Shown: positions 12,716 through 58,744 of the stretch, one piece after another
How positions within the stretch are numbered: position 1 is the stretch's first letter
Layout of the letters: the number at the start of each line of letters is the position of its first letter
UHGV virus genome: UHGV-1363143
Strand: one strand, 5' to 3'
Length of the DNA stretch: 64,000 bases
Source: a virus
The notes under the pieces: generated by a model
What the model saw: only the letters and a program-made list of their open reading frames with translations
What the model was told of the DNA's origin: nothing
The model's database searches: none
Translations under genes and position numbers: made by a program

Positions 12716-13171
12716 TTAAGTTTCAATAATTAAATTTGGATTATACTCAGTCAATGTCAAGCTGTCTATATCATCGTTTTCGATGTTGATTTTAAACATT
12801 TTTATATCATTTTCTATCATGAATTTAGTCATAGTTGGCTCAAACTTATCTGATATAACACATACAAATGCTAAATTACCTGCTACATCAACATAGAAAT
12901 TTCTGAATTCTAGCTGCTTTTTTAATTCATAAACAAGATCTCTCATTTCTGAATTATATTTAACTTCGAAGAATACAGGGGCCACATGTTTAAATGGACT
13001 TGGTTTAAGTCCGTAGGCCTCCCTGTCTACTTCTAAGTTAGCAGCTATATCAACTCTAAAATTTCTAAAACTATATTCAGTTCGCCAAAAACGTAGTTGA
13101 GGGAAGTAATCTTCCCATGAATCAACTATTTTTTTTACTATGTCTTTTTCCTTTAATTTGGTTTTAGACAT
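12716..13171 (-). CDS. hypothetical protein
   Basis: 151-aa ORF. Confidence 0.45.
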   Translation of the reverse strand: MSKTKLKEKDIVKKIVDSWEDYFPQLRFWRTEYSFRNFRVDIAANLEVDREAYGLKPSPFKHVAPVFFEVKYNSEMRDLVYELKKQLEFRNFYVDVAGNLAFVCVISDKFEPTMTKFMIENDIKMFKINIENDDIDSLTLTEYNPNLIIET

Positions 13172-14335: not shown

Positions 14336-14950
14336 TTATATAATTATGTCAAGCATCTTACTAGCTGCTTCCTCGGCTGTTATGTTTGTAGTATCAATTA
14401 TTTCTACCTTAGCCTTTCTAGGCTTATAAATATGAATCATATTTAAATAGTTTAGATTGGCTCCTAATAGATCAACTTTTTCAGAATCTTTGTCCAATCT
14501 ATTCACTTCATTTCGAAGTTGCATTCTTCTCTTCTTTTCTTCTTCTGATACCGTAAAGAAGAAAATAATATTTGGCTCAACTCCATTTAAAGCCTCTTTA
14601 TTTAAATTGAAGACTTTTTTATGGCCAATACCTTTCATTACACCTTGGTAATATAGTGAAGAATATATAAATCTATCACATATAACTGTTTTACCTTGGT
14701 CTAATAAATCTTTAATTTTTTTAGTATGCTCTGCTCTACTTGAAGCAAAAAGATAAGCTTCAGTTAGTGGATCCATATTGTTTTTAAATATTAGCTCTCT
14801 AATATCTTCTGCCACAACATTATCTAGTCCACCTGGTTCTCTTGTGAAAACTACATTATCATCTGAACCATATAATTCTTTAAGCTTACTAAGTGCTAAA
14901 GTCTTACCAGCAAAGTCCATACCTTCGGCTATAATGAATTTCCCAGCCAT
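14336..14950 (-). CDS. tmk: thymidylate kinase
   Basis: IIAEGMDFAGKT P-loop and FTREPGG motif, as in Tmk. Confidence 0.8.
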   Translation of the reverse strand: MAGKFIIAEGMDFAGKTLALSKLKELYGSDDNVVFTREPGGLDNVVAEDIRELIFKNNMDPLTEAYLFASSRAEHTKKIKDLLDQGKTVICDRFIYSSLYYQGVMKGIGHKKVFNLNKEALNGVEPNIIFFFTVSEEEKKRRMQLRNEVNRLDKDSEKVDLLGANLNYLNMIHIYKPRKAKVEIIDTTNITAEEAASKMLDIII

Positions 14951-29392: not shown

Positions 29393-30361
29393 CTATCTGT
29401 ATTCAATATTGAGTTTATCTAGCACATGTGCCATTCCTAGTCCCTTTTCAGGAACCCATATTCCTTCATCATTATATGTTCCGCCTCTCATACAGTAATC
29501 GTACATTTCAGGATGTGATTCTTTCATTCTCTGAAATCTATTTTTACCTTTTTCCATATGACAGCCGAAAATACACCCAACACAGCCTGTACGCTTTTCT
29601 CCTGTTGTTTTGAATTTCTTTTCATTATTATCATAAACAACTTCACCATACACTTCTGCTATGTCAAGTTTATATTCATAAATGTATTGAAGAATGTCTT
29701 GTTCTGTCCAAAAACCTAATGGATTGGACTTAGGCTCACTGCAATTAAATGCATTACAGCCACCATTATTTAAATATCTTATTTGCCTGTTTTGACTTTC
29801 ATCGGCCATAACTCCAGTTATAGGAATTCGGCCAGTTTTTTTATTATATTTTTTGAAAGGTCTTTTTTTCATAACATCGCAACACTTCTCACTTATTTTG
29901 AAGTCAGCTGAATTTAATAAGTAATGCCACTTATCACTCAGTTTACCTGCTCTGCCTTTTTCATCTCCATGCAATAACTTATTTCTATAAGCTGAGCTTA
30001 AATTTTGGGTAGTAAGTTTTCTAAATGCCATAGCTTGAGATTTAGAAATGCAAGGATACCCATAATGAGTTATTGTTTGAGCATAATTCATATCAGGTCT
30101 TATAACTTCATCAGCAATTTCTTTCGCTTTGTCAATTACTTCTCTATATTCCAAAGTAGTATTACAAAATACACTAGGTATATCTGGATATCTATTTTTT
30201 ACTATATGATGTAAAACTGAACTATCTTTACCTCCACTTATAGATGTATATAATCCATTAGTAGTAAATTGATATACAGCTTCATCAAGTCGCCTTTCAG
30301 TTTTTGCAATCTTAAGCTCTAATGGCAATGCTTGTGCCATCTTTAGTTCTCCTATATTCAT
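29393..30361 (-). CDS. PAPS-reductase-like PP-loop protein with Cys-rich DUF3440-like C-terminus
   Basis: SGGKDS PP-loop and C-terminal Cys clusters (CCDVMKK...GCNAFNC...GCVGCIFGCHMEKGKNRFQ). Confidence 0.6.
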   Translation of the reverse strand: MNIGELKMAQALPLELKIAKTERRLDEAVYQFTTNGLYTSISGGKDSSVLHHIVKNRYPDIPSVFCNTTLEYREVIDKAKEIADEVIRPDMNYAQTITHYGYPCISKSQAMAFRKLTTQNLSSAYRNKLLHGDEKGRAGKLSDKWHYLLNSADFKISEKCCDVMKKRPFKKYNKKTGRIPITGVMADESQNRQIRYLNNGGCNAFNCSEPKSNPLGFWTEQDILQYIYEYKLDIAEVYGEVVYDNNEKKFKTTGEKRTGCVGCIFGCHMEKGKNRFQRMKESHPEMYDYCMRGGTYNDEGIWVPEKGLGMAHVLDKLNIEYR

Positions 30362-35915: not shown

Positions 35916-35990
<75 letters not shown>

Positions 35991-36785
35991 CTGTAGTTCC
36001 ATAATTCCAGCGTCCGTATGGACCTGGAGATCTCCTTCTATCTTAGATAGATGAGCTAATGTAAGCACCACATTTTATAATCCCTTGCATGGATTGGGCA
36101 GGCACCATTATTTTTACATGCATGGTTGCATTGACCTAGCTTACTTTTTGTTCTTTCGGTCTTATTGATTATTACTATCCCACTCGTGAATAGCATATTT
36201 GTTTGAAACAATCGCCTGCACAATGCAAGCCCCAGAAAGAGTTTATCTTTCAAAATTAATGCAAGGTGGGGTGGCGTATCCCACATCTCTAACCATAACA
36301 ATATATGTAGTATAGACTGCCTGTTTCTACTTCTTGCATTTTTATATCTAATTGCTTACTTGAAAAACACGAGCTAATTACATTAGCTACTAAAACTCAT
36401 AAGCATAAATATACCTTCTTATAAGAGTTCCTAATCTATGTCTAAATAAGAAGTATATTAGTTTCATAAGGATATAGATTAGGTTTCACCTTACTTTTTA
36501 TTATTGCTTGAAAAAACCCTAAAAATTACTAAGCAATATATATATTCTTCTCACTTCCGAAACCAGCACTCCATGTCCTTCGAATATATAGTTTTTTTGT
36601 TTCGCTGATCTGGTCCTCTATGCAAAACTTTAAAGGGAAATTTGCTTACCGCCACAGTTCCTTCCTGCTCGTCCATAAGCTATTAAGTAGATAAATTACT
36701 CCTACTTAACTAGTGCGTCTCCAGTGAGCATAGTAAATCAGGCCAATCAAATCAGCTAAATACCAGAGGCTTGAGAGGTTCTATT
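35991..36785 (-). ncRNA. ~0.8-kb ORF-free, GC-enriched structured spacer between tRNA-Asn and tRNA-Thr; candidate large ncRNA (GOLLD/ROOL-like class hypothesis)
   Basis: No credible ORF. The only track ORF, 36056..36301, is Cys/His-poor and has no RBS. GC content is well above that of the coding background. The block is embedded in a co-directional tRNA array. Confidence 0.3.
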
Positions 36786-36859
36786 TGGAGCTCCTACTCA
36801 GAATCGAACTGAGAACAGAAGATTACAAGTCTACCGTTTTACCTTTAAACTATAGGAGC
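36786..36859 (-). tRNA. tRNA-Thr (UGU)
   Basis: Acceptor GCUCCUA/UAGGAGC, T-arm CUCAG-UUCGAUU-CUGAG, anticodon loop CUUGUAA. There is one U-U mismatch in the anticodon stem. CCA encoded. Confidence 0.6.
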
Positions 36860-37015
36860 ATATAATACTTTCGGTGTGCTACAGAAATCTAAGTTTCTGT
36901 TAATAGGCAAGGCTGTCTATATCAGGTATTCAGTAATTATGTACACTTTTAACTGAACCATACTATATATCCCTACACGCTACTCTTAACTATAAGAACA
37001 CCGAAAATATTATAA

Positions 37016-37090
37016 TGGTACTCCATGGGGGACTCGAACCCCCGATACACGATAGAAAGTCGTGTGGCTTAACCACTTGCCGAATGGAGC
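37016..37090 (-). tRNA. tRNA-Glu (UUC), tentative
   Basis: Acceptor GCUCCAU/AUGGAGU, T-arm GGGGG-UUCGAGU-CCCCC, perfect anticodon stem CACGA/UCGUG, loop CUUUCUA. Position 37 is an unusual U. CCA encoded. Confidence 0.55.
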
Positions 37091-37169
37091 ATAATTTGTG
37101 CTATCTCTTTTAGCTTGTACTTCGCCAAGGATGATAGCTATCCTTATCTGTACAAATTACAGATTTCTC

Positions 37170-37240
37170 TGGTGCAGATTGCTGGAATCGAACCAACCCT
37201 TATAATCTTATAGAAAACGCTCTACCTTGAGCTAATCTGC
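37170..37240 (-). tRNA. tRNA-like gene with intact acceptor, D- and T-arms but no foldable canonical anticodon arm
   Basis: Acceptor GCAGAUU/AAUCUGC plus ACCA, D-arm GCUC-AAGGUA-GAGC, T-arm GUUGG-UUCGAUU-CCAGC. The anticodon region UUUUCUAUAAGAUUAUAAGG contains a UAUAAG duplication, and no 5-bp stem with a 7-nt loop can be formed. Confidence 0.4.
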
Positions 37241-38269
37241 ATATTATATTTCCAGAGCTTTCAGATCCTATCTCTGGTACTCAACTTTTGCAGCATTATT
37301 GATTCTCTGCTTATCCACATTCTCTTGAATGTATTGAGTTATGCCTGCCTTGTTTAATGAGTGGCTTATCTCATCTAATAGTACACTACTCTACACCATT
37401 GATTATATCAACCTTGCGGGCTGTTCAGGCTGCTACCCCTTATACGCTCTCCGATATAGAACAATCAAGCTTTTGCGAAGCTATCATGCGCTTCATTCAC
37501 TTTTCAGTGTGAAGCATTAAGACACTTTCATGCACTACGAGGATGAACTTTCGCTTTTATATAGAATTAATATCTGTAAATTCTTAAATATTGTTTTATT
37601 TCCCAAAACATATAGCTTAAATTCATCATTCATTAAATTTTCAAACTGTAGATGTGTCATCCTATCAGCTCGCTTCCCTTTTGAGGAAGTAAATACTGGA
37701 CACCTACATAGCTTTCACTCAACTAAGTTACTAACTGGTAATAAATCATACTCTAGGATACCTCCGTCTCTCAACTTCTAAGGTCCTATTTCATTTTTAT
37801 TACTGGCCAATGCTCTTGCCTGTTAAACTCGAACTACTAACCTTCTGCTATAAATAGTTTATTTCATTAGTTTTGGTGTGTGCTATCTGATTACCAGTCA
37901 GAAACTCCTTCAGAGAGTATATCCCCTACTTTCTTACCAGCGTTGCCCATAAGCGAGCTTTCGCACCTAACTTATAAAACCTTATCCAATAATCGTCTTT
38001 ATCTCTTCCGCCTACTGAATAACATTTAAATTTATGCAGATTGCTTGAATTAACCTAATATTTCAAGGCGAGAATTTGTTAAATTCCCTTTACGCACATC
38101 ACTGTACGCTATTCATGTCAAGCCATGTTTACTTATTTTTTTTATAGAACCTAGTACAGATTCTTGTATGTAATTCCTACCTCTATTACATACTAGGCTC
38201 TTGCCTACCGATGTTTTCCTTATTTAAAACTAAGTACTGAAAAGAAAACTCATAACCAAAAATCGTACT
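37241..38269 (-). ncRNA. ~1.0-kb ORF-free GC-enriched structured spacer between tRNA-like gene and tRNA-Lys; candidate large ncRNA(s)
   Basis: Only a weak 83-aa plus-strand ORF with no RBS falls here. Composition matches the other large spacer and lies within the tRNA operon. Confidence 0.3.
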
Positions 38270-38345
38270 TGGTGAAGGTAGAAGGGTTTGAACCTTCGGC
38301 CCCAGCATTAAAAGTGCTATGCTCTACCAACTGAGCTATACCTTC
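38270..38345 (-). tRNA. tRNA-Lys (UUU)
   Basis: GAAGGUAUAGCUCAGUUGGUAGAGC..., anticodon loop CUUUUAA, T-loop UUCAAAC, CCA encoded. Confidence 0.9.
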
Positions 38346-38352
38346 ATATTAT

Positions 38353-38429
38353 TGGTAGTGGATATAAGAGTCGAACTTATCACCTTCTGCGTATCAGGCA
38401 GATGCTCTAACCAAATGAGCTAATCCACT
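38353..38429 (-). tRNA. tRNA-Ile (GAU)
   Basis: AGUGGAUUAGCUCAUUUGGUUAGAGC..., anticodon loop CUGAUAC, CCA encoded. Confidence 0.9.
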
Positions 38430-38435
38430 ATATTA

Positions 38436-38520
38436 TGGTGGGAACTGATGGAGTCGAACCACCCGAGCTAAAGCAACAGATTTACAGTCTGCCCCGCTAC
38501 CATCTACGGTATAAATTCCC
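38436..38520 (-). tRNA. tRNA-Tyr (GUA), type II with long variable arm
   Basis: Acceptor GGGAAUU/AGUUCCC, anticodon loop CUGUAAA, long variable arm, T-loop UUCGACU, CCA encoded. Confidence 0.8.
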
Positions 38521-38547
38521 GTATTGACATTGTTAATTGGCTAAATT

Positions 38548-38577
38548 ATTATAATTGTAAATGTACTATACTTACAA
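38548..38577 (-). promoter_or_regulatory. candidate sigma-A-type promoter (TTGTAA, 18-nt spacer, TATAAT) reading into tRNA-Tyr/Ile/Lys
   Basis: Minus strand -35 TTGTAA (plus 38572-38577) and -10 TATAAT (plus 38548-38553), located 30-60 nt upstream of tRNA-Tyr. Confidence 0.35.
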
Positions 38578-38614
38578 AGAACTAGATCAATCTTCGGATT
38601 GGTCTTTTTCTTAT

Positions 38615-38701
38615 TGGCAGGGGCTGTAGGATTCGAACCTACGTGGTGTTGTGCACAATGGTTTTGGAGACCACCGCCCTCGACCTCTAGGCAAAACCCC
38701 T
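38615..38701 (-). tRNA. atypical 87-nt tRNA: type II (long variable arm) architecture but anticodon CCA (Trp reading)
   Basis: Acceptor AGGGGUU/AGCCCCU plus G plus CCA, T-arm GUAGG-UUCGAAU-CCUAC, anticodon stem GUGGU/ACCAU with loop CUCCAAA. A 15-nt extra arm (UGUGCACAACACCAC) follows. Alternatively GUGGU pairs with the distal ACCAC. Confidence 0.45.
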
Positions 38702-38836
38702 GTAAATCTCCCGATTAGTTTAAAGACATTTATGGGACTGGTCATTAGAGAGGTCTTATGTATAAATTAAAACGTTATGCATAAATATATTATGTTAACA
38801 TCTATAAAAAGACTACTGATTTGAAAAACTTTTTTA

Positions 38837-38923
38837 TGGCGGAGAGTCTGGGACTCGAACCCAGAAGCCATTACTGACCAACAGTTTTCAAGACTGTCTG
38901 ACTACCAATTATCACAACTCTCC
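38837..38923 (-). tRNA. tRNA-Ser (UGA), type II
   Basis: Acceptor GGAGAGU/ACUCUCC plus G plus CCA, anticodon arm ACAGU-CUUGAAA-ACUGU, long variable arm, T-loop UUCGAGU. Confidence 0.85.
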
Positions 38924-39021
38924 ATGTTTATAGGAGAAAACGAAATAGGTGATAGGAATTGAACCTACACTTACTGCCATCCCTATCTCTAGCTGGCCTT
39001 GCTTCATTCTCCTGTTGCAAC

Positions 39022-39096
39022 TGGCGGAGGTGGAAGGGATTGAACCTTCGAATGATGGAATCAAAATCCATTGCCTTACCACTTGGCGACACCTCT
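39022..39096 (-). tRNA. tRNA-Gln (UUG)
   Basis: AGAGGUGUCGCCAAGUGGUAAGGC, closely matching the bacterial tRNA-Gln D-arm. Anticodon loop UUUUGAU, T-loop UUCAAUC, A1-C72 mismatch, CCA encoded. Confidence 0.8.
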
Positions 39097-39297
39097 ATAT
39101 AAAATGGCAATTTTACCGTTTGCCAAACGTTCTATGGTTTATACAAAAACTCATATCGTAAAATTTAAACGGGCTTAAGTGCCCTAAATTCTGGCATTTC
39201 ACCACGGGTATTTAGCAACCCAGGATTTTTATTATTGAATCTAATAAATTAAGATCCGTTCTAAGCACTGCAAAAAAATCTTAAAAAAATTTCGCTT

Positions 39298-39373
39298 TGG
39301 TCGGAGTTACAGGACTCGAACCTGTGATCTCATGGTCCCAAACCATGCACCTTACCATCTAGGCCAAACTCCG
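39298..39373 (-). tRNA. tRNA-Pro (UGG)
   Basis: CGGAGUUUGGCCUAGAUGGUAAGG..., anticodon loop UUUGGGA, T-loop UUCGAGU, CCA encoded. Confidence 0.9.
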
Positions 39374-39382
39374 ATATATAAA

Positions 39383-39474
39383 TGGCGGAGGACACAGGAT
39401 TCGAACCTGCGGAGGAACTTTCGTCCCTCGAATGCTTAGCAAGCACCTGCCTTAAACCTCTCGGCCAATCCTCC
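39383..39474 (-). tRNA. tRNA-Ser (GCU), type II
   Basis: Acceptor GGAGGAU/GUCCUCC plus G plus CCA, anticodon loop UUGCUAA, long variable arm CGAGGGACGAAAGUUCCUCCG, T-loop UUCGAAU. Confidence 0.85.
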
Positions 39475-39564
39475 ATATTAATAGCTCATTTTGGTCAGTT
39501 GAGCTAAACTGTAGTCTATAAGACTAAAAAATGAACATTGGAATTTAATATTGAATTGAATTAG

Positions 39565-39641
39565 TGGCGACTCACAAGGGGATCGAACCCTCGACCTCTG
39601 GCGTGACAGGCCAGCACTCTAACCATCTGAGCTAGTGAGCC
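39565..39641 (-). tRNA. tRNA-Asp (GUC)
   Basis: GGCUCACUAGCUCAGAUGGUUAGAG..., anticodon loop CUGUCAC, T-loop UUCGAUC, CCA encoded. Confidence 0.9.
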
Positions 39642-39647
39642 ATATTA

Positions 39648-39736
39648 TGGTGTCGTGAGAAGGATTCGAACCTCCAACCACCTGAGTCTTGTTAATGGAG
39701 CTCCCTCAGTGCGTATACCAATTCCGCCACCACGAC
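39648..39736 (-). tRNA. tRNA-like gene with 18-nt anticodon loop (11-nt insertion); anticodon undetermined
   Basis: Acceptor GUCGUGG/UCACGAC plus A plus CCA, D-arm GCG-GAAUUGGUAUA-CGC, T-arm GGAGG-UUCGAAU-CCUUC. A perfect 5-bp stem CUGAG/CUCAG encloses GGAGCUCCAUUAACAAGA. Confidence 0.4.
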
Positions 39737-41575: not shown

Positions 41576-41839
41576 CTATTTAAGGTATTCAAGTATATCT
41601 TTATGGGATTGGATAGTATTTTTTGATTTAAAGTATTTGATATAATTCTCTCCATATGATTTGAATATGGACTGTAATCTTATGTGTCTTGAACTTATAT
41701 ATTTTTCTTTTCCTGTTCCTTTACATCTAGGACAATCTTCTTGAACATAGTAATCAGTTCCTCCAATAAATGGATTGAATTCATTGCCTTTTTTAAATAC
41801 TAAAAAACTCTTCCTCCCCTTACATAATGAACATTTCAT
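41576..41839 (-). CDS. zinc-ribbon protein
   Basis: 87 aa with CSLCKG...CPRCKG. Confidence 0.45.
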   Translation of the reverse strand: MKCSLCKGRKSFLVFKKGNEFNPFIGGTDYYVQEDCPRCKGTGKEKYISSRHIRLQSIFKSYGENYIKYFKSKNTIQSHKDILEYLK

Positions 41840-41943
41840 GTTAGGTCCTTTCTTTTATAGAGATTAGGAGTTGCTAGATGATAAAACTGTTTAAAGCTAA
41901 TACATAAAACAATGACGAAACAGTTTATGCTATTTTATTACAT

Positions 41944-41972
41944 AAAAAAAAGATTATAAAAAATATAATCTT
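41944..41972 (-). terminator. rho-independent terminator (9-bp perfect inverted repeat AAGAUUAUA/UAUAAUCUU then U8)
   Basis: Perfect 9-bp stem with a 5-nt loop, followed by a U-run on the minus strand. It lies downstream of the 42070-42440 structured block and of gene 42600..42794. Confidence 0.5.
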
Positions 41973-42069
41973 AGTAATTCTGTGCTTTTCCCTTGTATTT
42001 CGAAAGAATCTTTTATTTTTTTTTATTCACAAGTAGTCTATTATTTTTTAGCAACATAATATAAAAACG

Positions 42070-42440
42070 TTAAGCGATTAACAGTACATATTATGGAGCA
42101 TACACCAAAGATGAATGCAGTTGCCCTATTACTTAAACATGGGAACCTTGCAAAAGGAGTCTTGCGAAGACTATAAAGATTTCCTACCGAAAGGTAAGGA
42201 TACAGAAAGCACAGCTGATGCAAAATAGTGCCTCTGGACAGTAAATGGCCATTCCCCTAGCACATGGTCGTTCAGGTTGAGACGTGATGACGACGTAATG
42301 GTCAGGAGGGAGTTCTGGGTGCATAGATGCACGGGAACTATAAGCAATTACATGGACAGAACCAATGTAGCAAAAGCTTATAGGTGTTTAACACATAACT
42401 GCTAGGGTGTAAGATAGTGATACGATTGACATATACGAAG
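42070..42440 (-). ncRNA. GC-enriched ORF-free structured element, ~370 nt, at the divergent junction; candidate ncRNA or long structured 3' UTR
   Basis: GC content is roughly twice the local background. Local hairpins include AGUCUU-GCG-AAGACU and a GNRA-capped CCUACC-GAAA-GGUAAGG. The minus-strand terminator at 41944-41972 is immediately distal. Confidence 0.3.
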
Positions 42441-42599
42441 CACAGATTATAGTTATTCTTTATTGATTGTAAAATTATATAGTATTTTGTATTTTTTTAC
42501 AATTGGTAAGGAAATAACTATATCCGTTCCACTCCGAGCATGCCGAAGTACAGGTGCTTTTCGCTTCTCTATACAAAACGTTCATAATTTTAAACGCTC

Positions 42600-42794
42600 C
42601 TACTCATCGACTGTATCATACGCCTTGGTTCTCTCCCAACCGTACTCTTTCCCACTAACGACTTCTAGTTTTTCTGTTTCAGCTATCTCAAGTATAGAGT
42701 TGCTGATCCTTCTCATAATATCTTCTCTCTGAGATTCTGTCTTATCAGCAAAATCAATCTCAACAAGAAGCTGGTATATTGGTTGTTTTGCCAT
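42600..42794 (-). CDS. hypothetical small acidic protein
   Basis: 64 aa. An AGGAGG RBS sits 7 nt upstream of the ATG. Confidence 0.45.
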   Translation of the reverse strand: MAKQPIYQLLVEIDFADKTESQREDIMRRISNSILEIAETEKLEVVSGKEYGWERTKAYDTVDE

Positions 42795-42987
42795 TTAAAA
42801 GCCTCCTACTTTTTTATTTTTAAAGTAGTCTTCTTCTTTAGCTTCTTAAATAACTTATCTAATTCTTTATCCTTATTATTCATTATTGCTTGTACCTCTC
42901 TTTTTAAAATATTTATTTAGATTGTTGACATAATAATAAATTCTTATACATATAATTTTACATAACACTATTGAAAGGGGTACGCTT

Positions 42988-43551
42988 ATGTTAAATACAG
43001 TTAAAAAGCCATCATTATTATGTAGAGTAGCAATCGGAATTGATAATTTCATAGAGAGACTATTTGCAGTAGAAAGTGATCCTGAATTCGAATTATGCAT
43101 ACCAGATAGTATTCTTCATAGAACTGAACTTATATGTGAATACATTAAAACTGAAAAAGGATATGATTTCGAAGTTGAAGGATTTCTTATGCTTTTATAT
43201 TTAGACTTCATAAAGAATTGTATTAAAAGCTACAATCCACGCAAAGTATTTAAGCAATTAACTAAGGAACACTATCAAGATCAATATTTGACTGCTGTTA
43301 ACTGTGGTGTCCCTGAGATAATACCTATTATTAAATACAGCAAAACTAATCTAGTTATCAGTATGGCCGAAGAAGACGTTAGGAAGGGCCAACTAATACT
43401 AGATGAATTATATGACTTATATGGATATAGAATTCCTTTCTCCAAACTTCTTGAAAACCTATGGATAGGATTCATTGAAGATTACAAAACTGGAGAAAAT
43501 AAAAGAGCTTATTACTCAATAGTAAAAATTCTTAAAGAATGCATTGATTAA
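42988..43551 (+). CDS. hypothetical protein (first gene of plus-strand block)
   Basis: 187-aa ORF with RBS AAAGGGG. Confidence 0.5.
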   Translation: MLNTVKKPSLLCRVAIGIDNFIERLFAVESDPEFELCIPDSILHRTELICEYIKTEKGYDFEVEGFLMLLYLDFIKNCIKSYNPRKVFKQLTKEHYQDQYLTAVNCGVPEIIPIIKYSKTNLVISMAEEDVRKGQLILDELYDLYGYRIPFSKLLENLWIGFIEDYKTGENKRAYYSIVKILKECID

Positions 43552-43665
43552 GCTCCCTTGAATATGCGTTGTATTTTTCGATTCTTTTCGAAAAAACATT
43601 GCTTTTATAATAATTTATAGGTACAATGTAGATACAACGTATATGCAAAAAAGCTTAGGGAGGTA

Positions 43666-44670
43666 ATGTTAATGTCAAAGAATTCTAAGAAGTATGTTTT
43701 AGTACTTGACTTGGGTAAAGGTGTAGCGAAAGGTTTAGGCTGTGAAATCACAGATAGTATACCTAATCCAGAATCATTAAAAAAATCTATGTTTGAAACA
43801 AAGAGTTATGATTTAAATAAAGGTTATACTGAATTACAAGGAAATTCTCATAAAGTAGATTTCAATGGTAGCTCAGTAATTTTAGGTGAACAAGGCGTAG
43901 ATCGTAGCTTTGAAACTAGTAAAACTACTCCACTTCATCAAATGTGTGCTTACACATTAATTAGCCAATATCTTGAACCTGATACTAAGGATAATGAAAT
44001 ATATCTTGTTCTTGCTTGTCCTATAACAGTATTAAAGAGTGATAAAGCTAAGCAAGAATATAAAAACCTTATTAAGGGTGATGGACCTATATCAATAACT
44101 GTTAATGATAAATATTATGAATTTGAAATTAAAGATATCTTAATTAAGGCTGAAAGTTCAGGAGTATTATATTTAATGCCTGAAGAATTTAAAGATAAAA
44201 AAATTCTAGTGGTAGACTTTGGTGGTCTTAATATGACTAATACTATCTTTACTAATGGAGTATGTGTTAATCCTGAAAATGATAGATTTGCTGAAGAATG
44301 GGGATCTGTTGAATTAATCAATAAAGTAAGTAAACACTTAACAGATTATTCTAAAGGTAATATTGTAGATTTCCAAACTTCTGAAGAAGCTTTAAATAGA
44401 GGTCACTTATTAGAATATGGAAAACCTGATTTAGCTTCTACTGAATATATAGAAAGAGCTAAACAAGAGTTTATAGATGACTCTCTTAAAAAATTAGCTA
44501 GACATAATGTAAGAACAAAGAACTTAGATAAAATAATCTATATTGGAGGAACTAGTTCTTACTTAAAAGACCAAATAAAAGCGTTACCTAATGGTCAAAT
44601 CACAGATAATCCTCAATGGTCTTCCGTAGAAGGCTTATTAAAAATCGCTATTAAAAAATATATTAAATAA
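43666..44670 (+). CDS. parM: actin-like ATPase of the ParM/StbA/Alp family (type II partition NTPase)
   Basis: Phosphate-1-like KYVLVLDLGKG, phosphate-2-like LVVDFGGLNMTNTIF, adenosine-like IIYIGGTSSY. The likely start is ATG at 43672, after the AGGGAGG RBS. Confidence 0.65.
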   Translation: MLMSKNSKKYVLVLDLGKGVAKGLGCEITDSIPNPESLKKSMFETKSYDLNKGYTELQGNSHKVDFNGSSVILGEQGVDRSFETSKTTPLHQMCAYTLISQYLEPDTKDNEIYLVLACPITVLKSDKAKQEYKNLIKGDGPISITVNDKYYEFEIKDILIKAESSGVLYLMPEEFKDKKILVVDFGGLNMTNTIFTNGVCVNPENDRFAEEWGSVELINKVSKHLTDYSKGNIVDFQTSEEALNRGHLLEYGKPDLASTEYIERAKQEFIDDSLKKLARHNVRTKNLDKIIYIGGTSSYLKDQIKALPNGQITDNPQWSSVEGLLKIAIKKYIK

Positions 44671-44672
44671 CC

Positions 44673-44990
44673 ATGTCTAAAAGACCAGGCTCATTTGTTT
44701 TCACATTTAGTAAAAAGAACGAAGATGTGAAAAATATCATTGACAATAAAAAGAAATCCGATAAAAATTTTGTAAAAACTGACTACATGTGTGCTGCAGT
44801 TAGATTTTATGAAAAATATAAGGATAACTTTAATGATAACTCTTCTCTTAGCGAGAATGATGTAATAAGAATAGTCAATGAAATATTAAAAAACAATCAA
44901 ATTAGTGTTGATAGTGATGTGAATGTAATTAATACTTCACTTAATTTAAACACAGATCACATATCAGATAGCGATTTAGAGGAAGATTAA
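44673..44990 (+). CDS. small protein immediately downstream of parM-like gene; ParR-like centromere-binding adaptor candidate
   Basis: 105 aa. Sits 2 nt after the parM stop, with a basic N-terminus and an acidic C-terminus. Confidence 0.35.
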   Translation: MSKRPGSFVFTFSKKNEDVKNIIDNKKKSDKNFVKTDYMCAAVRFYEKYKDNFNDNSSLSENDVIRIVNEILKNNQISVDSDVNVINTSLNLNTDHISDSDLEED

Positions 44991-45018
44991 AGCACTGTAT
45001 AATTCAGTGCTTTTTTGA
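44991..45018 (+). terminator. rho-independent terminator (AGCACUG-loop-CAGUGCU then U6)
   Basis: 7-bp stem, 7-nt loop and a T-run directly after the ParR-like stop codon. Confidence 0.6.
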
Positions 45019-45025
45019 TATAATT

Positions 45026-46351
45026 ATGAATAATAGAGAGGTGATAAATGTGGACGAATACTTATTTAGTTTTATTATAGAAAATATAAATAAAGATAAG
45101 GAACTTAAAGAATTTTATGATAAATATTATTATGAATATTCTGAGATACCTTATGAGGATTACATAAAAGAATTATGCATTGATAATCCTGAATTCTTTA
45201 AATCTGAATTTGATGAGCATAGAAAAAAGATTTTAAAAGCCTATATAAACACTCGCTCAAGATTAAATAAAAAAGCGGTAGTTATAGGTAGACTTATAAA
45301 CTTTCCTTTAGCATCTGAATCTAAAAAAACTACCTTGAAATCAATTGTTGACAACGAATTGAAGTTATTACTAATTGAAAATATAAAAGAATTTTTTGAA
45401 GTAAATTCTAAAATCACTGAAAGACCTTTATCTTTAGATGGAATGTACACTACTAAAGAAAAAATGACTTTATATGATGCTGATTCTACATTAGATATTA
45501 ACGATAGAAAAGCCTATATGAGTGAAGAGAAATATAAACGTCAGATAGGCATTGTTCAACCTCTATTCTTTGCAAACCCTACTACTGAAGTAATATTTGT
45601 AAAAAAAGGTGAAAAGTCATATCTTAAGTCAAAATCAATGGATACTAAAGACCAAAAGATAATGGACTTTTTAATAGAAGAATATAAACAAGTAATGTAC
45701 TATCCAGATCAAGTTTTAATTTATCCTATTCATCAAATATCAAAGCTGATATATAACAGAAAGGGTAAACAATATTTAGACTTAACTAGGGATAGATTAG
45801 CTAAAATAGGTAACTTAGGTCAGATAGTTTTTAATGATTCTATAATTAATAAAAAAGATGCACAAGGTAAGTTAATAGATCCTAAAGATAATTACGAAAT
45901 AGTAAGTTTTTTCGATATTCAATTCTTCACTAATGAATTAGGTGTACGTTTTTGTAAAATACTTATGTCTAGATCTATTGAATATGATTTAAAAACTAGC
46001 AATACAATAAAGCTATACAAACATAAGATTGAGCAAATAAAAAATGACTTTACAGCTATCTTTGTAAACTTTATTCAGTCTCAGCGTATTAACTCTTTAA
46101 TTTCTGATGAAGATGAGGCTATAGTACCATATAAAGTAATTAAAACTGGAATAAGACTTCCTAATGCAAGAAGTAAAGTTAAGAATTTAAAAGTAATTGA
46201 AGAATCTTTAGAAGAACTAGTTAATATGAACTTCTTAATTGATTCTTATGAAGTTAAAAATACTTATATTAAATTGCATTTCATACCATTTGGATATATA
46301 GAGCTAAAAGAACTTAAACTTGATTCTAAGGCTAAAGAGTTAGAAATCTAA
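45026..46351 (+). CDS. hypothetical protein upstream of iteron array
   Basis: 441-aa ORF. Confidence 0.5.
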   Translation: MNNREVINVDEYLFSFIIENINKDKELKEFYDKYYYEYSEIPYEDYIKELCIDNPEFFKSEFDEHRKKILKAYINTRSRLNKKAVVIGRLINFPLASESKKTTLKSIVDNELKLLLIENIKEFFEVNSKITERPLSLDGMYTTKEKMTLYDADSTLDINDRKAYMSEEKYKRQIGIVQPLFFANPTTEVIFVKKGEKSYLKSKSMDTKDQKIMDFLIEEYKQVMYYPDQVLIYPIHQISKLIYNRKGKQYLDLTRDRLAKIGNLGQIVFNDSIINKKDAQGKLIDPKDNYEIVSFFDIQFFTNELGVRFCKILMSRSIEYDLKTSNTIKLYKHKIEQIKNDFTAIFVNFIQSQRINSLISDEDEAIVPYKVIKTGIRLPNARSKVKNLKVIEESLEELVNMNFLIDSYEVKNTYIKLHFIPFGYIELKELKLDSKAKELEI

Positions 46352-46371
46352 TTTTCTAGCTCTTTTATTTT
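46336..46371 (+). terminator. rho-independent terminator (9-bp stem AGUUAGAAA/UUUCUAGCU then U-run)
   Basis: Imperfect palindrome overlapping the stop of 45026..46351, followed by tcttttatttttt. Confidence 0.45.
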
Positions 46372-46701
46372 TTAAATTACAGATGCATTTTTTAGGTACT
46401 ATATTTAAATTACAGATGCATTTTTTAGGTACTATATAAAAAAGAGATGCACTTTTTTGGTGCTATATCGACACAGAAGTGCATTTTTTAAGTGCTATAT
46501 TGATACTTTTTTTATAAGTGCATTTTTATCAATTATTTAACCTTTAAAAAGTTTTTTAAAATTTATGATTTTAAAACTAGAGATGCATTTTTTAGGTACT
46601 ATATTAATATAGAAGTGCATTTTTTTGGTGCTATATTAAAACTAGAGATGTATTTTTTAGGTACTATATCAACATAGAAGTGCATTTTTTTGGTGCTATA
46701 T
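46372..46701. repeat. iteron array: ~9 direct repeats of consensus AGA(T/A)GTGCATTTTTT(A/T)GGT(A/G)CTATAT around an AT-rich core; candidate plasmid-type origin or partition centromere
   Basis: A perfect 33-bp tandem duplication at 46372-46404 and 46405-46437. Further copies lie at ~46438, 46473, 46514 (partial), 46579, 46609, 46644 and 46674. Two alternating subtypes (..gatgcattttttaggtactatat and ..gaagtgcatttttttggtgctatat) recur at about 31-35 bp spacing, flanking the AT-rich tract 46531-46578. Confidence 0.75.
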
Positions 46702-46787
46702 TAATACTTTTCACAAATTAGACATAATAATTTTTTTAATATAAACTATGTTTATAATTAGAATATTATGTGAAAGGAGTGAAAACT

Positions 46788-47786
46788 ATGGTAACAAAAC
46801 AGATGATTAAATTAAGTAAGCAACTACTTTTAGACTTATCTTCTCTTAAATATACTCAAGATGACAGTGTAAACCTTCAACCAGAGTATAGAGATTATAA
46901 GAAATGTAGTGCTAATTGTCCGTTTTATAAAAATAAGGATGTTTCATTGTTTTGTCAAAAAGAGTGTGTATTTGTTTTATCTACTAGCTCATTAATAAAG
47001 CCTAGAGAAAACATACTTACTTATACTCAAATAAAACAGTTATTATATTATAACTCAACTGTATTTGAAAACAATGGAATAACCATAGAGCTTTCACATA
47101 AGGATGTAGCTAAAGCTATTAACTGTTCGGAAAGAACAGCTAGAGATAATATTAATGCTTTAGTTAAAGCTGGTTACATTGTAATATCTTCATATAATGA
47201 TAATAAATACAAGGTGTTTATCAGGGATTATCATAAGTATCATGAAAATGGTAATCGTGGACATCTTTATTTGAGCAATAAATGTTTTAAAGCTTTAATA
47301 AAAATAGATAACATAAATACATTAAGATTAGCTTTAGTTGGATTAGTGCGTCTTGATGATATGCGTGCATCTAAAGATAAAAATCCTTCTAAAGAATTAT
47401 CTTATAAAGCTCTAATTAACTTATTGCCTTCAAATATAACTTGCCCTAAGCAAATAGTTAAAATATTTACTAAGGCTAAAGAATTATTTAAAATGACATT
47501 CAAAGACGAATCTATATCTATATCTTTTAATAAGGACATAGATTCATTGGCATACGCAAAAAGCCTTAATAAAAATAATAAGAAGGCATTATCTAAATTC
47601 CTTAAAAGATTTGAATTAACTGTAACTAATAAGGATAAAGAAGATCTTCTTCAAATGTCTATCCAATATAATATTCATATTGTAACAAAGGCGTTTAATT
47701 ATATAAAGGATAAAAATCCTGATGAGTTAGGATCATATTTAAGAACAGTTATAAGAAATAACTTCAATTCTTTAATTTCTTGTTAA
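46788..47786 (+). CDS. helix-turn-helix DNA-binding protein immediately downstream of iterons; candidate replication initiator or iteron-binding protein
   Basis: HTH segment LSHKDVAKAINCSERTARDNINALVKAGYIV. The ATG at 46788 has RBS GAAAGGAG at spacing 8, whereas the ORF-track start at 46770 is GTG. A terminator follows at 47790-47816. Confidence 0.45.
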   Translation: MVTKQMIKLSKQLLLDLSSLKYTQDDSVNLQPEYRDYKKCSANCPFYKNKDVSLFCQKECVFVLSTSSLIKPRENILTYTQIKQLLYYNSTVFENNGITIELSHKDVAKAINCSERTARDNINALVKAGYIVISSYNDNKYKVFIRDYHKYHENGNRGHLYLSNKCFKALIKIDNINTLRLALVGLVRLDDMRASKDKNPSKELSYKALINLLPSNITCPKQIVKIFTKAKELFKMTFKDESISISFNKDIDSLAYAKSLNKNNKKALSKFLKRFELTVTNKDKEDLLQMSIQYNIHIVTKAFNYIKDKNPDELGSYLRTVIRNNFNSLISC

Positions 47787-47789
47787 ATT

Positions 47790-47816
47790 AGGGCTTTTTT
47801 GTTGTGCCCTTTTTTA
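47790..47816 (+). terminator. rho-independent terminator (AGGGC-loop-GCCCU then U-run)
   Basis: agggcttttttgttgtgcccttttttatt directly after the stop codon. Confidence 0.55.
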
Positions 47817-48216
47817 TTATTTTTACCTATTTGGGATATAAAACTAATGATAGCTATTACATTTTATATTATTTTTGTTGATAACCTGTTGATAATATGT
47901 GAGTAATAGCTTTTTTATTCACAAGTCAAGGAAAAAAAGATTGTTAGTAATTAAAAATAAACTGTTTATAAGTAAAAAAAATTTGTTACTAAAATTTTTT
48001 AATATCTTAATAACAAAAAAATATATGTATATAGTTTTAAAAAGATGTGTTGATAAGAATTTATTAAATCGAAGTTAATTCCATGAGTCAAGTATTTATC
48101 CTATCTAACACATCCTTGAAGCATAAATTTATTAACACTAACTTCTCTCCTATAACTTCTGTTTTATAACCTCTGCTCTATTAACGACTGGAGAGATAAC
48201 TACTAATATATATATG

Positions 48217-48399
48217 TCATAATTTTTTAAGTATGCTTCTATTTATTTTATTTAAAGTATTCCCTACTGTTTTTCTTTTAGCTCTTTTGATAATCTTTTT
48301 GGGATTACCAGTAAGTACAGTTTCTATATCATTAATTGTAGAAGCTATTTTATTAATAGTTCTAGATGTATCGTAAAAAACTTTAGATATTTTTTTCAC
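48217..48399 (-). CDS. small basic protein (GTG start), divergent from parA
   Basis: 60 aa, Lys/Arg-rich. An AAGGAGAG RBS sits 6 nt upstream of the GTG. Confidence 0.35.
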   Translation of the reverse strand: MKKISKVFYDTSRTINKIASTINDIETVLTGNPKKIIKRAKRKTVGNTLNKINRSILKKL

Positions 48400-48538
48400 T
48401 TAATACTCTCCTTTCATATTAAGGTTTTAATATTCAAAATTCAAGATATTTTATAATATATTTTCAATTTTAAATATTATTAAATTTCCTATTAGTAAAT
48501 CTAATATACTCTATATTATAGAATAAAATAGATTTTCG

Positions 48539-48566
48539 TTGTATATCGAAAAAAATGTGCTATAAT
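48539..48566 (+). promoter_or_regulatory. candidate promoter for parA operon (TTGTAT, 16-nt spacer, extended -10 TGcTATAAT)
   Basis: -35 at 48539-48544, TG motif, and -10 TATAAT at 48561-48566. The parA start lies about 30 nt downstream. Confidence 0.45.
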
Positions 48567-48595
48567 TTTCTTATAACTATAAAAAAGGGAGATGA

Positions 48596-49411
48596 ATGTT
48601 TATGCCTAAAACTATAGCTATAGGTACCTTTAAAGGTGGAGTTGGAAAAACAATGACTACTTTTAATTTAGCAGGTATATTAGCTGAGAGAAATTACAAA
48701 GTATTGTGTATAGATGTAGATCCTCAAGGAAATCTAACAAGTAATCTTGGAATTAATAGAGCTAATAATGGCTTAGTTGGTGTTGAAGCTATATTTAGTG
48801 AAAACTCTACAGTTAATCTTAACGATATAATAATAAAAAGTCCAATAGAGCAACTACCAACATTAGATCTTTTACCTAGCACAGTTTTGCTTCATAAATC
48901 TGAATTATTTATGGCATTAGCTCCTGCTAGAGAACTAAAGTTAAAGTATTTCATGATGGATAATAAAGAGGTTCTTGATAACTACGATTATATTTTAATA
49001 GATACTAATCCTAGTATGGGATATCTTAATCAAAATGCATTTGTAGTTGCAGATAAAATTATTATGCCAGCAACTGCAGATTTATCAGATTTAGATGGAA
49101 TACATCTATTCTGTGCATTATGGGATGATTTAAGAGAAAAATTACGTATAGACGATAATATAGCTGCTGTAGTTACTACTAAGAATGACAAAAGAGTTTC
49201 TCTTGATAGAAGTTTTATTGAACATATTAAAACTACAGAAGATAATGAAGATATAGCAGAATTATTAGTAGATACAATAATTCCTGTCAATGTTACTCTT
49301 AAGGAAGCAGCAATGAGCTGTCAACCTATTAATCTTTATAATAAGAATTGTATTGGTTATCAAGCTTATAAAAAATTGGTAGATGAGCTATTCGAAAGAG
49401 GTGTATTCTAA
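48596..49411 (+). CDS. parA: ParA/Soj-family partition ATPase (type I)
   Basis: Deviant Walker A KGGVGKT in IAIGTFKGGVGKTMTTFNLA. About 270 aa, typical of small ParA. Confidence 0.8.
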   Translation: MFMPKTIAIGTFKGGVGKTMTTFNLAGILAERNYKVLCIDVDPQGNLTSNLGINRANNGLVGVEAIFSENSTVNLNDIIIKSPIEQLPTLDLLPSTVLLHKSELFMALAPARELKLKYFMMDNKEVLDNYDYILIDTNPSMGYLNQNAFVVADKIIMPATADLSDLDGIHLFCALWDDLREKLRIDDNIAAVVTTKNDKRVSLDRSFIEHIKTTEDNEDIAELLVDTIIPVNVTLKEAAMSCQPINLYNKNCIGYQAYKKLVDELFERGVF

Positions 49412-49917
49412 TGGCCAGAAAGTCTACAGGTAATAAATTCAGTTCCATTGCTAATTCAACTCCTCGTAATTTACCATTTAGAGAAACTCTTACCATAGAA
49501 GATAGAATTGCATATGATAAGCTTAGTCCTGAGGAACAAAGTGGATATGAGCAGTTTTGTATTGATAATGTAAATAATAATAGTATTGAAGATTATCTTC
49601 ACTATAGTAAATCAAAGTCTACTCCTAAAATAGTAACTAAAGCTACTAAAAATACAACTAAACCTATTGAACAGCCAGTAGAAATAAATATATCAGAAAC
49701 TAATATAAAAACTGATATAACTGATTATAATCCAGTTCAAAGTGTTCAAAGTATGATAAATAAAAACTTATCTATTGAAGAAGAAGCTGGTAAAAATATA
49801 TCTGTTTATTTAAGTGCTGAAGCATTAAACGTAGTTTCTGTATATATGAAAAAGCATAAAATTAAAAACAGATCTAAATTAATAGAAACAGTATTATTAA
49901 GCGTACTTAAAGAATAA
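49411..49917 (+). CDS. ParB/ParG-like centromere-binding partner of ParA (candidate)
   Basis: Translationally coupled through a TAATG overlap with parA. 168 aa with a basic N-terminal tail. Confidence 0.4.
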   Translation: MARKSTGNKFSSIANSTPRNLPFRETLTIEDRIAYDKLSPEEQSGYEQFCIDNVNNNSIEDYLHYSKSKSTPKIVTKATKNTTKPIEQPVEINISETNIKTDITDYNPVQSVQSMINKNLSIEEEAGKNISVYLSAEALNVVSVYMKKHKIKNRSKLIETVLLSVLKE

Positions 49918-49945
49918 GCTCCCCAATACTAGGGAGCTTTTTGCT
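49918..49945. terminator. bidirectional rho-independent terminator (AGCUCCC-loop-GGGAGCU) between convergent genes
   Basis: 7-bp GC-rich stem followed by T5 on the plus strand. It sits between the plus-strand partner gene and the minus-strand gene 49946..50257. Confidence 0.55.
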
Positions 49946-50257
49946 TTATACAGCTTGTTTCATATTTTTTATTATTTTCATTTGAATAACTCTTAAAGTA
50001 CGTTTGTAGCTATATAATATTTCACATGATGGAGCTTTTTCAAAAATTGCCGAAACCTCTTCTGCTAATTTATTAACTACAGATTCTAATCCTATAGCTA
50101 TAGGTATTTGATGAATTTTATTTCCATCTATAAAAGTATTAAATAAGGCTAAACTACCATTCATCTCAGATAAATCTAAACCTACTATGTCAGCTATTTC
50201 ATTCATAATCATAGCTTCTTCTAACGTTAAAATATTTAATATAAAGTTATTAAACAT
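49946..50257 (-). CDS. hypothetical protein
   Basis: 103-aa ORF. Confidence 0.45.
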   Translation of the reverse strand: MFNNFILNILTLEEAMIMNEIADIVGLDLSEMNGSLALFNTFIDGNKIHQIPIAIGLESVVNKLAEEVSAIFEKAPSCEILYSYKRTLRVIQMKIIKNMKQAV

Positions 50258-58366: not shown

Positions 58367-58744
58367 TTACAATCTTTTAGTTGCTCTAACTAAATTACTA
58401 TATGTCCAAGGCTGTTTTTCTTCTTGATAGCTTATACTTAATTCTTGGCTACATTTAATACATAAACAGCCTTCTCTATTCCAAGGTTTTTGAGAGATGT
58501 TCGCTCCGCATCTCTCACAACCTAATTCTGCAGATGCATATTTTCGGCCCATTTTTATATATTTTCTATTTTGTTTATTGCCAACTAAAACTAATGAATC
58601 AGTTGTGATGGTAGAGAATGTTCCTTTATCCATATCCCAAGGATAGTTCTTTTTAATTAATAAATTTCTAAGACTGAATATATTTATTCTAGCTCTAGGA
58701 TTACTAAATATCATATCTTGGGTTAGATCCACATTGCTTTTCAT
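58367..58744 (-). CDS. hypothetical Cys-rich protein
   Basis: 125-aa ORF with CERCGAN...CLCIKC. Confidence 0.45.
   Translation of the reverse strand: MKSNVDLTQDMIFSNPRARINIFSLRNLLIKKNYPWDMDKGTFSTITTDSLVLVGNKQNRKYIKMGRKYASAELGCERCGANISQKPWNREGCLCIKCSQELSISYQEEKQPWTYSNLVRATKRL

Follow-up and report, generated by a model that had tools for sequence, protein, structure and literature searches.

The 64,000-nucleotide stretch of the virus genome UHGV-1363143 analysed here (the window) carries, at positions 42988–49917, a block of genes in which a candidate plasmid replicon stands between two partition cassettes, one built on an actin-like ATPase and the other on a ParA-type ATPase. A preliminary description, made from the letters alone, had singled this block out as the only one on the plus strand, and among the window's open reading frames (ORFs) of at least 150 amino acids (aa) the plus strand is indeed confined to 42988–49917; the sign of the GC skew also flips across this interval. 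The genome that harbors the block appears to be about 240 kb long and of clostridial type, with low GC and a Gram-positive signature. Every part of the cassette is of a known kind; the replication module is of an uncharacterised type. From left to right, the features of the block are:

42988–43551, plus strand: 187-aa protein that heads the block and belongs to the conserved core; unmatched in Pfam, PHROG and NCBIfam
43549–43657, unstranded: alp12 promoter with candidate centromere/operator, marked by repeats and a palindrome
43666–44670, plus strand: Alp12-family actin-like segregation ATPase; likely start at 43672, giving 332 aa
44673–44990, plus strand: 105-aa Alp12 partner, a ParR-like adaptor candidate, beginning 2 nt past alp
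44989–45013, plus strand: terminator-like hairpin closing the alp12 operon (hairpin scan)
45026–46351, plus strand: 441-aa replicon protein of an uncharacterised family, the second replication protein
46334–46365, plus strand: terminator-like hairpin after the 441-aa gene (hairpin scan)
46371–46708, plus strand: iteron array, two clusters with four direct 21-bp iterons each (TRF span)
46770–47786, plus strand: 338-aa RepE-like iteron initiator candidate (rep); likely start ATG at 46788
47790–47815, plus strand: GGGC/GCCC hairpin with a T-run, terminator-like; read directly and given no score by the scan
47876–48056, unstranded: DnaA-box cluster in AT-rich DNA, four boxes downstream of rep
48139–48180, plus strand: three 14-bp direct repeats (TAACTTCTNNNNTA), from TRF
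48217–48399, minus strand: 60-aa basic protein, antisense, between the origin region and parA
48533–48566, plus strand: parA promoter-operator, the palindrome TTTTCGTTGTATATCGAAAA followed by an extended -10
48596–49411, plus strand: small ParA, deviant Walker ATPase; alternative start at 48602
49411–49917, plus strand: 168-aa ParA partner, a ParG/omega-like centromere-binding candidate, with a 1-nt overlap with the parA stop
49916–49939, unstranded: bidirectional terminator at the end of the block, a terminator-like hairpin

The true starts of three genes were judged by ribosome-binding-site spacing (43672 for alp, 46788 for rep and 48602 for parA), and these later starts match the gene calls on identical metagenomic contigs. 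Each transcription unit of the block ends in its own terminator. Promoters, on the other hand, are named only where they could be read directly, since a promoter scan did not rise above chance in this AT-rich DNA (66 hits, against 52 ± 8). The TTGACA at 42925 was dropped as a promoter, the nearest TATAAT lying 20 nt away.

The candidate replicon and its relatives

The replicon is best described through its relatives, designated here by L numbers, which share a conserved core consisting of the 187-aa gene, the 441-aa gene, iterons, the 338-aa gene and DnaA boxes. Wherever a relative has the 441-aa gene, its block opens with a homolog of the 187-aa protein (71% identical in L011, 64% in L021 and 36% in L012). 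What follows the core varies. L011, a 119-kb contig that encodes Pol III alpha and has a 441-aa homolog 45% identical to that of the window, carries only the 187-aa, 424-aa and 348-aa genes; L012 (54%) has ParA and its partner and no Alp; both par cassettes are found in the window, in L016 (91%; a 241-kb IMG/VR genome) and in L021 (52%). By this comparison, both partition cassettes are best regarded as accessory to the replicon core.

The 441-aa protein, whose role the preliminary description had left blank, has now taken its place in that core. It has no sequence match in Pfam, PHROG, NCBIfam or PDB. Its profile, however, aligns over the full length with that of a group of ~480-aa proteins from Bacillales plasmids (hhalign 99.9%, E 4.8e-32, 395 columns). 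The family is small, with 68 cluster representatives at E ≤ 1e-3 among 1.84 billion, and one member, from Alkalihalophilus, bears the PGAP label 'replication initiator protein A'. A RepA_N identity was rejected, no family match being obtained for the 441-aa protein, nine homologs, the Alkalihalophilus protein or 25 distant relatives; the second protein beside the Alkalihalophilus homolog is unrelated to the 338-aa family. Nor could homology to the 441-aa protein be demonstrated for the 471–491-aa genes that lie by distant rep homologs in L017 and L019 (hhalign 8.9% and 0.4%). The predicted structure of the 441-aa protein is poor (pLDDT 66), with a winged-helix-rich C-terminal half that gives weak matches to RctB, Pi and the first winged-helix domain (WH1) of RepA.

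Outside phages, the same layout is found on plasmid pMC1 of Exiguobacterium sp. S3-2, where a 478-aa homolog of the 441-aa protein is followed by 41-bp tandem arrays, a 355-aa homolog of the 338-aa protein (hhalign 96.4%, E 1.4e-9), and ParA with its partner. Because pMC1 has this layout, the unit of two proteins plus repeats can be taken as a true plasmid replicon type. The two are nevertheless far apart: the 41-bp repeats are unrelated to the iterons of the block, the proteins are only ~21–26% identical, and pMC1 is a mobilisable plasmid that lacks Alp12. The plasmid-type maintenance function proposed in the preliminary description is strengthened both by this comparison and by the relatives.

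The 338-aa gene had been read as encoding a helix-turn-helix (HTH) protein that could be a Rep-like initiator, and its predicted fold is indeed RepE-like. The AlphaFold model (pLDDT 77, pTM 0.70) finds the RepE/Rep-iteron complexes 8ac8, 8aan and 7sgc in Foldseek (E 2.5e-5, probability 1.0), with a target TM score of 0.52 over 206 columns, and since it matches these complexes, the protein is predicted to have the WH1-WH2 fold of iteron initiators. Predicted additions to that fold are a C-terminal helical domain (residues ~259–337) and a Cys-rich N-terminal segment. Searches with the sequence gave a weak match to HTH_36 and matches at 1e-4 to 1e-5 to PHROGs for replication initiation and for a DnaD-like loader. 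A 90%-identical relative in nr is named 'replication protein O [Caudoviricetes sp.]', and phages of the phiCD211 group have relatives that are 26–29% identical; the phiCD211 gene neighbourhood of this weak relative was uninformative. As Pfam Rep_3 is unmatched, the protein is called RepE-class-like and is not filed in Rep_3; the positive control for that search, the Rep protein of pCLOPA01, matches at 1e-42. The hairpin that follows the rep gene is kept in L011.

Between the two genes lies the iteron array, which the preliminary description had also reported and which proves to consist of eight direct copies of RTGCAYTTTTTWRGTRCTATA. The motif occurs nowhere else in the 64 kb, where 0.2 copies would be expected, and none of 100 shuffles reached eight. 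The copies are spaced 32–33 bp apart in clusters at 46383–46499 and 46583–46700, the AT-rich spacer between the clusters contains a half-site (46513–46527), and the array stops 70 bp upstream of the 338-aa gene. Every relative has an array of ~4 copies with a 32-bp period between its two rep genes, the sequence differing from one relative to the next, and these arrays often show a 65-bp super-period made up of two alternating subtypes. In L007, whose block proteins are 100% identical to those of the window (seven of seven), cluster 1 and the spacer are gone: L007 11302–11538 differs from 46351–46769 of the window by a clean 200-bp iteron-to-iteron deletion.

Downstream of the rep gene is a cluster of DnaA-box-like sites, a feature absent from the preliminary description: TTATCAACA at 47876, 47887 and 48048 (minus strand) and TTATTCACA at 47915 (plus strand). 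The enrichment is local only, as DnaA boxes over the whole window number 23 against 21 expected. Four of these 23 matches fall within 180 bp, which corresponds to a Poisson P of ~1e-6 per 200 bp, or ~3e-4 once the scan of the whole window is accounted for. At the aligned positions, L011 and L012 have perfect or near-perfect DnaA boxes (TGTGGATAA/TTATCCACA), with Rep proteins that are only 45–58% identical. Farther downstream are repeats of 14–15 bp (TAACTTCT...), found at the same position in L012 (~12860–12915), L016 and L011 (12945–12995). Since L011 has them without ParA, these repeats probably belong to the origin, not to the ParA centromere.

How does this arrangement compare with known iteron replicons? 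RepE, Pi and pPS10 RepA share with it the predicted WH1-WH2 fold, direct iterons about three helical turns apart beside the initiator gene, and DnaA boxes. The block differs from them, however, in having no Rep_3 match, an extra C-terminal domain, a conserved 441-aa partner, and an origin that is bipartite around the gene. A more ambitious proposal, which we put forward only tentatively and consider unlikely, is that the 441-aa and 338-aa proteins define a new two-initiator replicon class of Bacillales plasmids and clostridial jumbo phages. Each protein would then read one of the alternating iteron subtypes (A/B, within the 65-bp super-repeat) of a bipartite, DnaA-assisted origin, and the par cassettes would share a palindromic operator.

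The two partition cassettes

An actin-like ATPase of the ParM/Alp type with a small ParR-sized gene downstream had been proposed for the left part of the block, and both are there. Over its full length (residues 7–332) the alp product aligns with ALP12 in PDB 4apw (E 9.6e-86); it matches Pfam ALP_N (3.2e-11, 44.1 bits against a gathering score of 26.3) and phrog_691 'partition protein' (4.3e-39), and it is 45% identical to Alp12 of plasmid pE88, with the D-x-G-K, DFGGLN and IGGT motifs aligned identically. These matches place it in the Alp12 family. Alp12 itself, also called CtParM, is an actin that segregates the toxin plasmid pE88 of C. tetani and assembles into four-stranded filaments (PMC5193048). 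A tblastn search traced the family to 44 plasmids, of which Clostridium accounts for 33, and to a single circular phage of C. botulinum, CWou-2020a. The two-gene module of alp12 and partner recurs in this phage and in two Clostridium plasmids, pE88 and pCLOPA01.

The 105-aa product of the second gene has no Pfam, PHROG, NCBIfam or PDB match. It is, however, 38–51% identical to the protein encoded directly after alp12 on pE88, pCLOPA01 and CWou-2020a, and two segments are kept across these partners, an N-terminal F-S-K-x-N..KK segment and an acidic C-terminal L-E/D-E-D tail. Because it is homologous to the alp12-following genes and conserved at both termini, it is a candidate for the cognate adaptor. 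The DNA to which it might bind lies at the alp12 promoter, where a 26-nt inverted repeat (43549–43574 and 43632–43657) is accompanied by the palindrome TTTTCG-N8-CGAAAA at 43575–43594. CGTTGTAT motifs occur at 43567 (plus strand) and 43632 (minus strand), and there are only three sites of the CGTTGTAT type near the promoter. In pE88, pCLOPA01 and CWou-2020a the alp12 promoter is flanked by 7–9-bp repeats particular to each, in sets that are clearer than that of the window. The module of pE88 and that of the block are alike in the ATPase, in having a homologous small partner, and in the short promoter repeats. They differ in that the block belongs to a jumbo phage genome, lies beside a replicon and ParA, and has fewer repeats, CGTTGTAT as against TATACCTAA in pE88.

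The right part of the block had been described as a ParA deviant Walker ATPase, translationally coupled to a partner and served by an extended -10 promoter of its own, and each of these elements was recovered. ParA matches AAA_31 (1.7e-40), CbiA (3.8e-19), phrog_164 (3.1e-56) and ParA/Soj structures in PDB (1.3e-26). Its KGGVGKT motif occupies residues 13–19 of a protein of 269–271 aa that has no N-terminal extension. As the protein is short, with the ParA proteins of P1 and F aligning to it only past their residue ~105–111, it is assigned to type Ib. The 168-aa partner gene overlaps parA by a single nucleotide, and the extended -10, TGcTATAAT, lies upstream of parA at 48558–48566. Among relatives, the partner keeps an N-terminal peptide and its last 45 residues, and the linker between them is variable; the conserved C-terminal segment reads AGKNISVYLS..NRSKLIE..LL.VLK. 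This layout fits partners of the ParG/omega type. The ribbon-helix-helix (RHH) fold suggested for the partner is one that we infer, since there is no Pfam or PDB match.

The two cassettes may be connected through their promoters. The palindrome TTTTCG-N8-CGAAAA occurs twice in the window, adjoining the alp12 and parA promoters only, where 0.15 occurrences would be expected. At the parA promoter it is kept in L016, L008 and L021, and not in L012, the relative without Alp, which lacks the shared palindrome. L021 has its own versions, of co-varying sequence, at both par promoters. The Alp12 and ParA cassettes may thus be co-regulated through the shared palindrome, in the manner of pB171. The double par locus of that plasmid is the textbook case of such a pair, with a type II par1, a type Ib par2, and regulatory cross-talk between them, a precedent cited through PMC13245405. 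The block and pB171 are alike in carrying an actin-type and a small Walker-type system on one replicon, possibly with a shared operator. In pB171, however, the loci lie next to each other, are transcribed divergently and have parC1 in common, whereas those of the block are co-directional and separated by 3.9 kb that include the replicon, and there is no sequence kinship.

Why would one element carry two partition systems? The preliminary description had called the presence of type II and type I systems side by side unusual, a view that does not hold for plasmids: type I systems with RHH partners occur together with type II systems on 971 PLSDB plasmids, and ~19% of partition-bearing plasmids have more than one system (PMC13245405). 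It could be that a single par system suffices, Alp12 being a recent, exchangeable module that alters incompatibility or host range and the palindrome a generic promoter element. The distribution of the cassettes speaks for this, L012 doing without Alp12 and L011 without either cassette, as does their mosaic composition. Compared with L008, the Rep proteins are 100% identical, ParA 92% and its partner 81%; compared with L021, ParA is 85.5% identical and the remaining proteins 39–67%. Judged by these identities, the par cassettes are mosaic among the relatives. There are also precedents, in that the specificity of ParMRC sets plasmid incompatibility in C. perfringens (PMC9426499) and one of the two partition systems of SCP1 is reported to be dominant (PMC13245405). 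Both cassettes are nonetheless intact and have been retained together as far as L021, with its 441-aa homolog at 52% identity, and the palindrome recurs there at both promoters in co-varying form. We consider it unlikely that only one of the systems is needed.

The surrounding genome

Proteins identical or nearly identical to those of the block are found on contigs of 238–241 kb. An exact look-up of the 441-aa ORF returned 2-kb contigs only, and the long contigs were reached through a 433-aa form of the protein. Other genes in the window encode topoisomerase II subunits, a UvsX-like recombinase, helicases, a sigma factor, enzymes of nucleotide metabolism, and a glucosaminidase/SH3 endolysin-like protein; relatives encode Pol III alpha and beta. 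The phage-type structural context of the preliminary description was not borne out, as no structural gene was found among the 30 flanking window ORFs scanned, and for this reason the identity of the element as a phage is taken from IMG/VR membership and from the name in nr. A megablast search of 42900–50000 against phage and plasmid collections gave no nucleotide match.

The small minus-strand ORF between the origin region and parA is annotated as a gene in L007 and L012, and its product is 47% identical to that of a co-located 74-aa ORF in L012 (12920–13144); the 60-aa protein has no Pfam, PHROG or NCBIfam match. To the left of the block, at ~42150–42550, there is a conserved non-coding stretch with a GC content above that of its surroundings. 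Its identity to L021 is 80% over 390 nt, although the neighbouring proteins reach only 52–67%; to both L008 and L016 it is 91%. The minus-strand fold has a z of -2.6, and RNAalifold, with only four sequences, gives 107 pairs, eight of them with changes on both sides. An Rfam search of 41800–43000 found nothing credible. The stretch is a candidate for a structured RNA or a regulatory leader, on either strand.

Farther to the left, 14 tRNA genes lie on the minus strand at 35926–39736, a region in which GC rises to 0.37–0.39. Within this cluster are a full-length GOLLD RNA (37263–37708, 171.8 bits, E 1.6e-46), a skipping-rope RNA (36258–36340, 58 bits), and an odd ARAGORN call for a tRNA-Tyr with anticodon ATA (37170–37240), which is weak in Rfam (34.5 bits). 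Two adjacent minus-strand ORFs, 3782–5008 and 5563–6258, match positions 380–696 and 151–367, respectively, of the phrog_1967 helicase, with ~550 bp between them, which suggests one gene split by an intron, an intein or a homing element. A 255-aa ORF on the minus strand at 58744–59511 matches phrog_10081 'transposase' (4e-101) and may represent an insertion sequence within the phage genome. Auxiliary metabolic ORFs at 304–984, 10993–11673, 14336–14950 and 29393–30361 encode a PnuC-like nicotinamide mononucleotide transporter, an anaerobic ribonucleotide reductase small subunit/activase, a thymidylate kinase and a PAPS-reductase-like protein, respectively; such genes are typical of large phages. 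In L021 (contig ERR5773451_27), the gene at 1–187, a few kb from the block, resembles phospholipase C (alpha-toxin) in having a Zn_dep_PLPC and a PLAT domain, and may be a toxin cargo of the phage lineage.

Probable plasmid maintenance and its alternatives

The block is probably the region that maintains a ~240-kb phage-like genome in plasmid mode, as a prophage; persistence of the phage as a plasmid of low copy number is the most likely outcome. What the analysis shows directly is homology, repeat statistics, a predicted fold, and conservation of gene order and of non-coding sites. The sites that each protein binds, the separate duties of the par systems, the copy control and the episomal state are inferred, and on that footing a course of events can be outlined. 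The 338-aa protein would most likely bind the array of eight direct iterons that immediately precedes its gene, and host DnaA would most likely occupy the conserved box cluster just downstream of it. AT-rich DNA near the iterons and the DnaA boxes would then open, and the replicative helicase of the host would be loaded, a step that the 338-aa protein may assist through its additional helical domain at the C terminus. The 441-aa protein would be an obligatory second replicon protein, acting as co-initiator, loader or copy control, and the second iteron cluster would probably lower the copy number through titration or handcuffing. Segregation would be served in two ways, by Alp12 filaments linked to the DNA through the 105-aa adaptor at the short repeats of the alp promoter, and by the small ParA driven by its 168-aa partner, the two cassettes presumably acting independently.

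The plasmid-prophage region of P1 comprises the oriR iterons, repA, the incA iterons and parA-parB-parS. The block is similar in that a tandem winged-helix initiator gene is flanked by DNA sites, with DnaA boxes, two iteron groups, and a par operon immediately downstream. On the other hand, there is no sequence kinship, both iteron clusters of the block are upstream of rep with the DnaA boxes downstream, and the 441-aa protein is added. Nor are the partition functions the same, the block having a small type Ib ParA with a non-HTH partner where P1 has a type Ia ParA, an extra Alp12 cassette, and a genome of ~240 kb around it.

Also comparable are some large phages of clostridia. CMX is a 229-kb extrachromosomal jumbo prophage of C. 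beijerinckii, inferred to be actively partitioned (PMC10538166), and big C. difficile phages that are plasmidial carry parM-like genes (PMC5786514). Like the element considered here, CMX and the phages of the phiCD5763/phiCD211 group (~130 kb) are large and low in GC, and they are kept as circular plasmids. The likeness to CMX is drawn from its published description. No deposited phage or plasmid is similar to the block in nucleotide sequence.

Could the block instead serve lytic growth? The iterons and Rep would then form a lytic origin like that of lambda O, and Alp12, ParA or both would position or transport phage DNA, as AlpAC of the Corynebacterium prophage CGP3 or PhuZ of jumbo phages. 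The name 'replication protein O' given to the 90%-identical homolog of the 338-aa protein points in this direction, as do its PHROG matches, which include lambda O-like and DnaD-like loader families. The surrounding genome looks large and autonomous in its replication, with Pol III alpha and beta in relatives, and AlpAC is cited as a phage actin that serves replication and transport (PMC5786514). However, the replicon of two proteins plus repeats, followed by ParA, is also found on a Bacillales plasmid that is not a phage, and the Alp12 module is the segregation module of plasmid pE88. The block runs against the direction of the other genes, with promoters and terminators of its own, its DnaA boxes point to host-dependent initiation, and the par cassettes are dispensable among relatives. 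No evidence was found for the suggestion in the preliminary description that one par system might have been repurposed for the lytic cycle; both cassettes are plasmid-like in anatomy and come and go among the relatives as accessory modules. A lytic role for the block is accordingly quite improbable. A further reading, in which the element would be a megaplasmid, or a defective replicon of phage origin, and the block an ordinary plasmid backbone, would agree with the plasmid-type replicon and par cassettes and with the window ORFs scanned, which include no capsid, tail or terminase gene, and is very improbable given the 241-kb relative in IMG/VR, the Caudoviricetes label of a homolog in nr, and the phage hallmarks in the window (topoisomerase II pair, UvsX-like recombinase, tRNA array with GOLLD, and endolysin-like gene).

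Several points nevertheless weigh against maintenance as a plasmid prophage. The assignment of the 338-aa protein as an initiator comes from one predicted fold with a moderate TM score, and Pfam Rep3_N/Rep3_C (Rep_3) is unmatched by this protein and by 14 homologs. The initiator-like matches of the 441-aa protein are no stronger than generic winged-helix matches, and its model is poor. Neither the 168-aa nor the 105-aa protein has a Pfam, PHROG, NCBIfam or PDB match, and no ParA centromere was found, there being no repeat set specific to the ParA-bearing relatives. No host was matched when species-representative genomes were searched with profiles of the 441-aa and 338-aa proteins, and the 30 flanking ORFs scanned in the window contain no capsid, tail or terminase gene. 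The single iteron cluster of L007 may reflect natural variation in copy control or the collapse of an assembly at 3.6x coverage. Finally, an episomal or temperate state is conjectural, the analysis having covered 64 kb of a genome of ~240 kb.

The pairing of type I and type II systems on plasmids, extrachromosomal large prophages of Clostridium, and C. difficile phages that carry parM are already known. What is new here is an uncharacterised two-protein, bipartite, DnaA-assisted iteron replicon that also occurs on Bacillales plasmids, and a jumbo-phage genome that unites this replicon with two partition cassettes. The replicon family has no Pfam or NCBIfam model, yet it occurs on Bacillales plasmids, including ones typed as mobilisable. 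Its definition would improve plasmid typing and might provide a new clostridial vector backbone, the core at 44991–48200 being a self-contained candidate mini-replicon of ~3.2 kb. The relatives, with zero, one or two par cassettes on one core, offer a natural comparison for the benefit of a second partition system. To our knowledge, a plasmid lifestyle has been documented for very few jumbo phages. If the block acts as proposed, a ~240-kb phage with its own genes for DNA metabolism would persist as a segregated low-copy plasmid, and the reading of gut and anaerobe viromes would change, since such a phage would be carried by its host and not only infect it.

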